From Candidatus Babelota bacterium (GTDB lineage: Bacteria; Babelota; Babeliae; Babelales; GCA-2401785), in the NCBI GenBank assembly GCA_016871815.1, contig VHBT01000002.1, positions 17,359 through 81,358 of the forward strand: a DNA stretch of 64,000 bases, given 5' to 3'. This document shows positions 28,899-30,017 of the stretch, one piece after another; positions within the stretch are counted from its first letter, which is position 1, and each line of letters begins with the position of its first letter. The notes below the pieces were generated by a model. That model did not search any database, was not told where the DNA came from, and was given only the letters and a program-made list of their open reading frames with translations. A program made the position numbers and the translations under genes.

Positions 28899-30017
28899 AT
28901 GATTTTGCTCGCAAAGACGCTTGTTAGCGCTCTTTTTTTCTGCACACTTTCACTGGTGGGTTTTAGCACAAACTACTCAACGCTCAGCCTTACATCTGAG
29001 CACAAAGATTCATTTTTAGACGCATGTACTCCAAACAAAAAACACATTTATGGACAACTATTTGCTAAAAACGAATCTGTTGATGAACAAATTACAGTTT
29101 TCAGTAGACCAAACATAAGCGAGTTAAGTCAAAAGGAATTACATATTCTCACCAACGCGTGCAAAAAAACAACTCAATTTTTAACATCGAGAACTAAAAA
29201 ATTCTTTACGTATCAGCACGCTCCTAGAAGCAAAAAAGCTCTTCTCATTACGCTCAATTTTGCAGATCCCGCGCTCTTCAGATTTTGCAAATCAAACCTT
29301 TTTGCGCAAGACGAAATTCAAGTTGCAGAGCATCCGCACCTTGGCCTTCTTGCTCAAGAAATAGCCGAAGATGCACCTGCAGTTTTAGATACAAGATCAA
29401 ATTCTGTAATCATTCATAATGTTCCTCAACTCTGCAGAATTGATTCTCAAAAACCAATTGATGGTAAAATTTTATACGGAAATAATTTTGCTAGCGCATC
29501 AGTTGCTGAAATTGATCACAGACTCTCACTGCTTGAACCTCATCAAAATAATACCCTTCTTGCAATTTGCGCTCCGAACGTAACTGGTCGACGAGTTTAC
29601 ACAACAATGATGATTCAAGATTTTTTTGCTCAAATTCTTTCTGGCTTTCAACACACCCAAGCTGTAACAACAGAACTAGGATTTAAAAAAATTATTATTC
29701 ATTCAGGCGGACTTGGAACAGGGGCATTTGGACATCACAAAGTAGTCAGTATTGTTTTACAACTTATCGCCGCACAAATAGTTTCTCAATCAATGAAAAA
29801 TCCCCGAAACCTTGAAATCAGATTCTTTGGAACAACCGAAAAAACATATCGCAAAGCTTTTGATATTTTTAAAGCGTTCAAGTCGCAATTGAAAAAAGAA
29901 AAATTCGATTTTTCCCATGAAATACTTACTCAAGAAAACGAAAATAGAACCGTTGAGATTCTTGTAAAAATCTTTAATCAAAAAAATATTTTTCCACATC
30001 AAGGAACTGGTGATTAA
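28899..30017 (+). CDS. Secreted poly(ADP-ribose) glycohydrolase (canonical PARG)-like macrodomain protein with a divergent signature
   Basis: 372 aa with a signal-like N-terminus. [22 protein letters not shown] and [25 protein letters not shown] align in register with the PARG segments VDFAN(x13)QEEI and [24 protein letters not shown], as I recall them. Confidence 0.5.
   Translation: [372 protein letters not shown]

Follow-up and report, generated by a model that had tools for sequence, protein, structure and literature searches.

The 372-amino-acid (aa) product of one open reading frame (ORF) in a 64,000-nucleotide (nt) stretch of DNA from Candidatus Babelota bacterium (contig VHBT01000002.1, positions 17,359 to 81,358; this whole stretch is called the window) is almost certainly a true homologue of poly(ADP-ribose) glycohydrolase (PARG) of the canonical (PF05028) type, with a PARG fold. 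Our preferred reading, held with moderate confidence, is of an exported protein that belongs to a large group of PARG macrodomain proteins of the canonical type, here called the QDE subfamily; it would act on an ADP-ribosyl O-glycosidic bond, with host-derived conjugates as the most plausible target. The ORF lies on the forward strand at 28899-30017 and comprises an ATG start, 372 codons and a stop (ORF list and translation of the window). Its product is 100% identical to the hypothetical protein FJ366_00740 of Candidatus Dependentiae bacterium. An initial annotation, made from the DNA letters, had placed this ORF and two PARG-like segments in it, at residues 119-140 (29253-29318) and 265-292 (ending at 29774), and these coordinates are correct.

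As a single sequence, the protein matched nothing in NCBIfam and nothing in the PDB by phmmer. Twenty-two relatives were found; together with the window protein they gave an alignment of 23 sequences, each of which matched PF05028 (best E value, 1e-15). In the wider subfamily, ten members scored above the threshold of that model, at 35 to 67 bits. A family profile built from the 23 sequences matched human, mouse and rat PARG chains in the PDB at about 1e-12, over the diphosphate-loop (C-terminal) half only. Because this HMMER match was confined to the C-terminal half, the register of the catalytic loop was tested by profile-profile alignment. A 136-sequence family alignment, headed by the window protein, was aligned with hhalign to 28 diverse canonical PARGs from the databases; these had been fetched with a human PARG sequence as query, and the query itself was left out of the alignment. 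The local mode gave a probability of 99.3% (E value, 7.7e-21) over 274 columns, and the global mode gave 99.8% (E value, 1.4e-26) over 310 columns, with identical residue pairing. The alignment spans residues 25-360 of the window protein, at about 14% identity to the canonical PARGs. The resulting residue map, with human PARG numbering and residue roles after Rack et al. 2020 (PMC7050489), is given below.

28899..30017, forward strand: coding sequence of the PARG-like protein, stop codon included (ORF list; database identity to FJ366_00740).
28899..28964, forward strand: hydrophobic segment resembling a signal peptide or signal anchor, residues 1-22 (K6, then 16 uncharged residues; the family core starts at about residue 22).
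28965..29252, forward strand: N-terminal accessory region, residues 23-118, including the invariant K47 and Y105 (aligned by hhalign to the C-terminal part of the canonical accessory domain).
29253..29318, forward strand: catalytic-loop block, residues 119-140 (aligned to VDFANRFVGGGVT.AGLVQEEI).
29265..29267, forward strand: D123, aligned with human Asn740, the residue in contact with the 3''-OH; microbial PARGs have Asp here (hhalign; PMC7050489).
29277..29285, forward strand: F127-R128-F129, at the position of Gly744-746 (GGG) (hhalign; F127 is 99% conserved in the subfamily).
29307..29315, forward strand: Q137-D138-E139, at the position of Gln754-Glu755-Glu756 (QEE), E139 corresponding to the catalytic Glu756 (hhalign; all three 100% conserved).
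29475..29480, forward strand: Y193-G194, Y193 corresponding to the adenosine-stacking, canonical-PARG-specific Tyr795 (hhalign; PMC7050489).
29691..29774, forward strand: diphosphate-binding loop and the helix that follows, residues 265-292 (G270, G273, G275, A276, F277 and G278 kept).

As seen, both hallmark loops fall in the PARG register that the initial annotation had proposed, with LNFAD against VDFAN and an identical 13-residue spacer, and the three intervening blocks that it had listed (HPHLGLL; CLIITGT; LLAICAP against EIVAIDA) aligned as suggested; both were obtained in either hhalign mode. The substitutions that it had read, FRF for GGG and QDE for QEE with retention of the catalytic Glu, were recovered in the pairing of F127-F129 and Q137-E139. 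At the start of the motif, NFAD replaces the canonical DFAN in both modes, and the GGG-x6-8-QEE signature is absent at the aligned positions of the protein. By alignment, Y193, which is 99% conserved, pairs with the Tyr of TGYAETY, 41 residues past the Q of QEE in the template, and G275-A276-F277 within GGLGTGAFG pairs with GNWGCGAFG, where the hydrophobic, ribose-straining patch G[A,V][F,Y] lies. Toward the N terminus, query residues 25-119 align with residues 62-140 of the PARG template; only the last 80 or so residues before the core align with the canonical accessory region. PARG_cat_N (PF20811) gave no match for the protein or for any of the 33 family members scanned, DUF2263 (PF10021) gave none for the protein at an E value of up to 10 or for the 23 members at up to 0.01, and the PADLOC anti-phage models gave none for the protein or four family members.

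The predicted structure was examined next. The AlphaFold2 model has a predicted local distance difference test score (pLDDT) of 87.2 and a predicted template modeling score of 0.88, with a confident core from residue 22 and a helix at residues 2-17 of low pLDDT. A Foldseek search of the PDB returned canonical PARGs as all of the top 37 matches (3e-10 to 1.5e-7; TMq, 0.43 to 0.56), including those of Tetrahymena (3e-10), human (about 7e-9), mouse, rat and Drosophila. The second tier was formed by the microbial-type (DUF2263) TcPARG at 8e-6, followed by MacroD/YmdB at about 1e-4. In a library of viral structures, baculovirus PARGs ranked first (about 4e-11), and giant-virus PARGs of the microbial type followed at 1e-7 to 1e-5. 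The structures of MavL and Larg1 were not among the best 50 of the 61 significant PDB matches. In overall fold, a macrodomain core extended by accessory-domain strands, the model matches canonical PARG structures. Overall, the protein is of the canonical rather than the DUF2263 type, as the initial annotation had held; this follows from the Foldseek ranking (3e-10 versus 8e-6), the lack of a DUF2263 match in Pfam and the hhalign coverage N-terminal to the macrodomain core.

To place the protein among its relatives, an exhaustive profile search was run over 1.84 billion cluster representatives. It returned 622 clusters (50% identity) at an E value of up to 1e-30 and 1272 at up to 1e-10, mostly of proteins of 310 to 345 aa; the window protein itself scores 355 bits against the family profile. 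NFAD-x13-QDE and GxWGxGA[F/Y]G are present in nearly all of 171 subfamily sequences, and the canonical GGG occurs at the aligned positions in 0 of the 171. Among 132 members from outside Dependentiae, fourteen positions are 100% conserved (N120, F121, Q137, D138, E139, P146, L148, G194, Y234, G270, G273, G275, G278 and Q288), and each of them is kept in all four Dependentiae orthologues. Where the initial annotation had described a signature remodeled in this one protein, the N, F, Q, D and E in question are 100% conserved and the change is subfamily-wide. Judged from these alignments, NFAD-x13-QDE ... YG ... GxxGxGA[F/Y]G is a signature of ancestral origin, held under strong constraint in a separate and mostly bacterial subfamily.

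A scan of one genome per prokaryotic species, which returned no Dependentiae genome, confirmed 215 loci, so that the subfamily occurs in at least 215 bacterial species genomes. These belong to many phyla, including Myxococcota, Planctomycetota, Verrucomicrobiota, Acidobacteriota, Gemmatimonadota, Chloroflexota, Actinomycetota, Bacteroidota, Synergistota, Eisenbacteria and others. Eukaryotic members (P0040, P0105, P0109, P0126, P0127 and P0147) come from Anaeramoeba ignava, Trimastix marina, Ceratiomyxa fruticulosa, Pelomyxa schiedti, a bdelloid rotifer and Naegleria lovaniensis, and this patchy distribution suggests inter-domain transfers. The Pelomyxa schiedti member has 550 aa and is annotated as a tyrosyl-tRNA synthetase, and that of Trimastix marina has a signal-like N terminus. 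The statement that canonical-type PARG is essentially eukaryotic, made in the initial annotation, therefore fails for the QDE subfamily, and canonical-type PARGs in bacteria have already been noted (PMC11833690). Two types of PARG-like enzyme, canonical and microbial (DUF2263), are distinguished in reviews (PMC7050489, PMC8120803); no paper on a QDE-type PARG or its chemistry was found within the literature searched.

Several bacterial members are fused at the N terminus to a "Swiss Army Knife" (PTP-SAK) DSP-PTPase domain (PF22784/PF22785), an arrangement that recurs in P0025, P0031, P0035, P0133 and P0162; these phosphatase fusions were counted as a link to ADP-ribose and NAD chemistry. DUF429 occurs in one fusion (P0026) and also near a free-standing gene (P0017). 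Among distant free-standing members, comparison of the genomic context revealed no constant neighbor. P0024 (593 aa) is matched over two separate stretches, possibly as the result of a tandem duplication.

The window protein and three close relatives (46 to 61% identity) form a Dependentiae clade, which was monophyletic in 40 of 40 bootstraps of a neighbor-joining tree and sits on a long branch at 22 to 27% identity, scoring 80 to 108 bits against every other member. In the protein collections, sequences of this exported type number four at the 90% clustering level (two 50% clusters). The clade keeps 32 of the 43 positions that are conserved at 90% or more, the whole catalytic block included, and has lost 11. 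Besides the changes at the diphosphate loop considered below, it differs at W117 (I/V), T168-P169 (N/Y-S), G232, W365 and G367, and it carries an insertion of about 15 to 25 residues at 325-345.

All four orthologues have a hydrophobic N-terminal segment despite their divergence, whereas cytoplasmic family members have none. The N terminus was judged by a simple hydropathy test for an uncharged hydrophobic segment. Among 171 representatives, the test was passed only by P0001 and P0002 of the clade and by P0038 and P0105, one of the two passers outside the clade being from Trimastix; the clade members P0003 and P0004 narrowly failed owing to an internal Lys. In the window protein, the best 12-residue window (residues 9-20) follows K6 and has a mean Kyte-Doolittle value of 2.28, which confirms the hydrophobic stretch that the initial annotation had called signal-like. 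The hydrophobic N terminus is almost confined to the Dependentiae lineage within the family. As read from the sequence, K6 ahead of the segment and the acidic residues behind it favor an N-in, C-out orientation, and we consider the protein likely to be exported. A lipoprotein reading was rejected, as there is no L-x-x-C lipobox.

The surroundings of the gene in the window were compared with those on two related contigs, L001 and L004. Immediately upstream are the following features.

26648..28823, forward strand: polar-amino-acid ATP-binding cassette (ABC) importer (binding protein, permease and ATPase), directly upstream of the PARG-like gene in the window and in all close relatives.
28824..28898, forward strand: spacer of 75 nt from the ABC ATPase stop codon to the ATG of the PARG-like gene; its length and first half are kept in relatives.

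The importer and the PARG-like gene share a strand, with the importer directly 5', both in the window and in two related lineages whose orthologues are 46 to 61% identical. The spacer measures 74 to 75 nt in the three lineages (window, 28824-28898; L001, 5927-6000; L004, 5926-6000), and its first 50 nt or so are conserved across them. An AT-rich hairpin at 28821-28857 (-9.8 kcal/mol; z = -2.9) folds significantly in the window only. As neither relative has a significant fold there, the idea that the spacer holds a conserved element, be it a terminator or a regulatory hairpin, was rejected. The 3' neighbor varies, being a 336-aa gene in the window versus a beta-carbonic anhydrase (Pro_CA) gene in the relatives, which points to a rearrangement breakpoint immediately 3' of the PARG-like gene. 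The 336-aa ORF (30014-31024, reverse strand) has no family match, and its 3' end shares 4 nt with the stop codon of the PARG-like gene.

Among the other neighbors, the ABC ATPase ORF as called (28053-28823, forward strand) has a TTG start and overlaps the permease gene by 50 nt; its true start is more likely an internal Met at about nt 28092, MTMIKIKNLYKSF, where the family alignment begins. A 479-aa ORF at 25092-26531 (reverse strand) has no Pfam or NCBIfam match, a signal-like segment after an internal Met and a product ending in ...SVSVDF, whose C-terminal Phe resembles that of outer-membrane beta-barrels. Unannotated genes of 454 to 472 aa occupy the equivalent position, divergent from the ABC importer, in L001 and L004, and the 25092-26531 product may be a conserved unknown outer-membrane protein. 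On the related contigs, the PARG-like gene is followed 1 to 2.5 kb downstream by a tandem pair of genes for TLC-type nucleotide (ATP/ADP) translocases (L001, 8179-11350; L004, 9541-12739); they are not at the corresponding position of the window and are consistent with an energy-parasitic lifestyle. The rest of the window is core genome, with rpoB/rpoC, pnp, rph, uvrC, pheT and ribosomal protein genes; the initial annotation spoke of an effector-rich genome, but the window is ordinary and not visibly rich in effectors.

According to the proposed mechanism, the ADP-ribosyl group would be bound in the usual macrodomain cleft, and E139 would serve as acid/base for cleavage of the O-glycosidic bond at ribose C1''. 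The candidate substrates are the ribose-ribose bond of poly(ADP-ribose), ADP-ribose on the 2'-OH of RNA and ADP-ribose on phosphate ends of nucleic acids, three linkages that are all known substrates of the PARG class. The altered glycine loop probably shifts the substrate preference without loss of catalysis, and the conserved residues point to a protein that is probably an active hydrolase. The N-terminal segment would route the enzyme through Sec, so that its catalytic domain would lie beyond the cytoplasm. The least certain step is the next one, in which secretion or vesicles would most plausibly bring it to host-derived ADP-ribose conjugates, in line with proposals for other members of the phylum. 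For host-directed hydrolases of Dependentiae, the proposed route consists of Sec signal peptides together with outer-membrane vesicles (PMC6561590). A host-directed role is plausible, and that the protein acts in or on a host is put forward tentatively.

Several observations weigh against this reading. On its own, the sequence matches PARG_cat_C (PF05028) at an E value of 0.0029 and 17.7 bits over residues 216-299, below the 26.3-bit cut-off. The protein has no GGG loop, although in canonical PARGs the backbone of that loop gives the active site its shape. Beside the diphosphate loop, W272L and G279H are specific to the Dependentiae clade, both residues being invariant in the subfamily and in canonical PARG, and these two changes could weaken or retarget binding. 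The possible G-F-S cleavage context at residues 21-23 is a non-canonical site. Sec export reaches the periplasm only, and neither an ADP-ribosyltransferase partner nor a host-interaction gene was found in the neighborhood of the gene. Finally, 23 of the 48 window ORFs of at least 150 aa pass the same N-terminal hydropathy test, and Chromulinavorax, a Dependentiae isolate, has predicted signal peptides on 44% of its proteins (PMC6561590). Export is therefore common in this phylum; with so many similar N termini in the window, it says little on host targeting and is no mark of an effector by itself.

Other explanations of the same data were considered. The protein might instead be a housekeeping enzyme, periplasmic or tethered to the inner membrane and facing the periplasm, that is tied to the ABC importer and scavenges or detoxifies an ADP-ribose-containing compound with no delivery to a host. 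The position of the gene directly 3' of the binding protein-permease-ATPase operon in three lineages, the constant 74- to 75-nt spacer, the variable downstream neighbor and the lack of a convincing conserved terminator between the ATPase and PARG-like genes all speak for such a tie, and a Sec signal alone would end at the periplasm. However, the importer is of the Lys/Arg/Gln/cystine type, and no known chemistry joins such a transporter to a PARG-type hydrolase; synteny in one narrow clade can be inherited without a functional link, and family members elsewhere are without this importer neighborhood. We regard this explanation as unlikely. More improbable still is an uncleaved anchor that leaves the catalytic domain facing the cytoplasm, for the cell's own ADP-ribose metabolism or for protection from ADP-ribosylating toxins. 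Cytoplasmic members are the rule in the family, the cleavage site is weak, and defense against ADP-ribosyltransferase toxins has been proposed for bacterial PARGs (PMC11833690). Nevertheless, the charges (K6 before, net acidic after) favor N-in, C-out, and with about 16 residues the segment is as short as a signal peptide and placed like one. Bacterial competitors would also be few for a parasite that lives obligately inside cells and has a reduced genome.

A binding-only protein, an exported reader of ADP-ribose or poly(ADP-ribose) that has lost hydrolysis, would fit the absence of GGG, the change of QEE to QDE, the W272L and G279H substitutions, the loss of 11 of the 43 family-conserved positions and the long branch of the clade. 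Yet the GGG-less QDE loop is ancestral in a strongly constrained subfamily, and its Q, D and E show 100% conservation across 132 diverse sequences and the four orthologues, as one would expect where catalysis takes place. With the G-A-F patch, the Tyr and the catalytic Glu kept as well, the reader explanation is quite improbable. As for origin, the initial annotation had suggested a horizontally acquired effector. That the protein is a recently captured eukaryotic canonical PARG, with its signature remodeled after transfer, is scarcely credible, even though its fold and profile are nearest to canonical PARG, Dependentiae inhabit protists and, in the neighbor-joining tree, the clade lies near metagenomic sequences with Anaeramoeba, Naegleria and rotifer proteins one step out. 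Identity to QDE-subfamily members is 22 to 38% versus about 14% to canonical PARGs, the best phmmer matches outside the clade resemble GC-rich bacterial sequences, and the neighboring protist proteins are themselves QDE members rather than canonical PARGs. The spread of the subfamily over bacterial phyla and the shared synteny, which indicates vertical descent within the Dependentiae clade, also fail to support a recent capture. The tree itself (40 bootstraps) supports only the monophyly of the Dependentiae sequences; since distances to canonical PARGs are saturated, rooting is unreliable and an AT-rich composition effect is likely, it was not used to decide on horizontal transfer. An exchange with protists inside the subfamily is conceivable, and both bacteria and a protist QDE member are candidate sources of the clade ancestor.

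The QDE group mixes the features of the recognized types, with the canonical fold and Tyr795 equivalent, the Asp of the microbial type, no GGG and an invariant QDE. Characterizing one member would show either that PARG catalysis can proceed without the glycine loop or that another ADP-ribose linkage is targeted. The Dependentiae copy adds a putative export signal to an otherwise cytoplasmic enzyme, making it a testable candidate eraser of host ADP-ribosylation in a phylum with hardly any known effectors. It is rather doubtful that the QDE proteins without GGG make up a functionally distinct third subclass of PARG, acting for example on ADP-ribose at nucleic-acid ends or on another O-linked conjugate instead of poly(ADP-ribose) chains, and that the Dependentiae member is a Sec/vesicle effector erasing ADP-ribosylation in protist hosts; if true, this would be the first PARG-class bacterial effector, in parallel to baculovirus PARGs, MavL and Larg1. 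The main value lies in the chemistry of the QDE subfamily and in a concrete effector candidate for the amoeba-associated Dependentiae.

Within the literature searched, there was no secreted PARG-class bacterial effector. A functional precedent for an effector is offered by MavL and Larg1 of Legionella (DUF4804), host-acting macrodomain ADP-ribosylhydrolases of an amoeba-infecting intracellular bacterium, which differ in their arginine N-glycosidic specificity and in delivery by the Dot/Icm type IV system rather than Sec. The catalytic-loop motif of DUF4804 is WDxx[S/A]xPGN[D/E][F/Y][F/W/Y] (PMC10951314); it is absent from the sequence and Pfam gave no DUF4804 match, and membership in the DUF4804/MavL family was rejected.

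The microbial PARGs (TcPARG of Thermomonospora curvata, 3SIG; DrPARG of Deinococcus; SCO0909 of S. coelicolor) are likewise bacterial macrodomain hydrolases of the PARG class, with an Asp before the motif and the same proposed Glu mechanism, and they have been shown to strip ADP-ribose from poly(ADP-ribose), RNA 2'-OH and phosphate ends; removal from the latter two by PARG-class enzymes is described in PMC11833690. Unlike the window protein, they have GGG-x6-8-QEE and a ribose cap and are without the canonical accessory strands or a Tyr795 equivalent.

Canonical PARGs (human, 4B1H; Tetrahymena, 4EPP; baculovirus) have the fold of the window protein, which shows part of their N-terminal sheet extension as well, and are collinear with it over 274 to 310 columns. 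Both have the Glu756/E139 and Tyr795/Y193 pairs, a Gly-rich diphosphate loop and the G-A-F patch, and the spacing from the residue preceding the motif to QxE is identical. They differ in having GGG where the window protein has F-R-F (F-x-x in the subfamily), QEE rather than QDE and Asn740 rather than Asp, as well as PARG_cat_N, in place of which the window protein has a far shorter N-terminal region (about 95 aa). Eukaryotic PARGs are nuclear, cytoplasmic or mitochondrial, whereas the Dependentiae protein bears a putative export signal.

Other QDE members appear in UniProt as "PARG catalytic Macro domain-containing protein." Those of Labilithrix luteola (AKJ09_10288), Naegleria, Anaeramoeba and Ceratiomyxa are homologous over the full length and carry an identical NFAD-x13-QDEIQVxEHP block, and YG, GxxGxGAFG and the C-terminal G-x-G-[DN] end are common to them and the Dependentiae protein. 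What sets the Dependentiae clade apart is its hydrophobic N-terminal segment, in contrast to the cytoplasmic norm of the subfamily.

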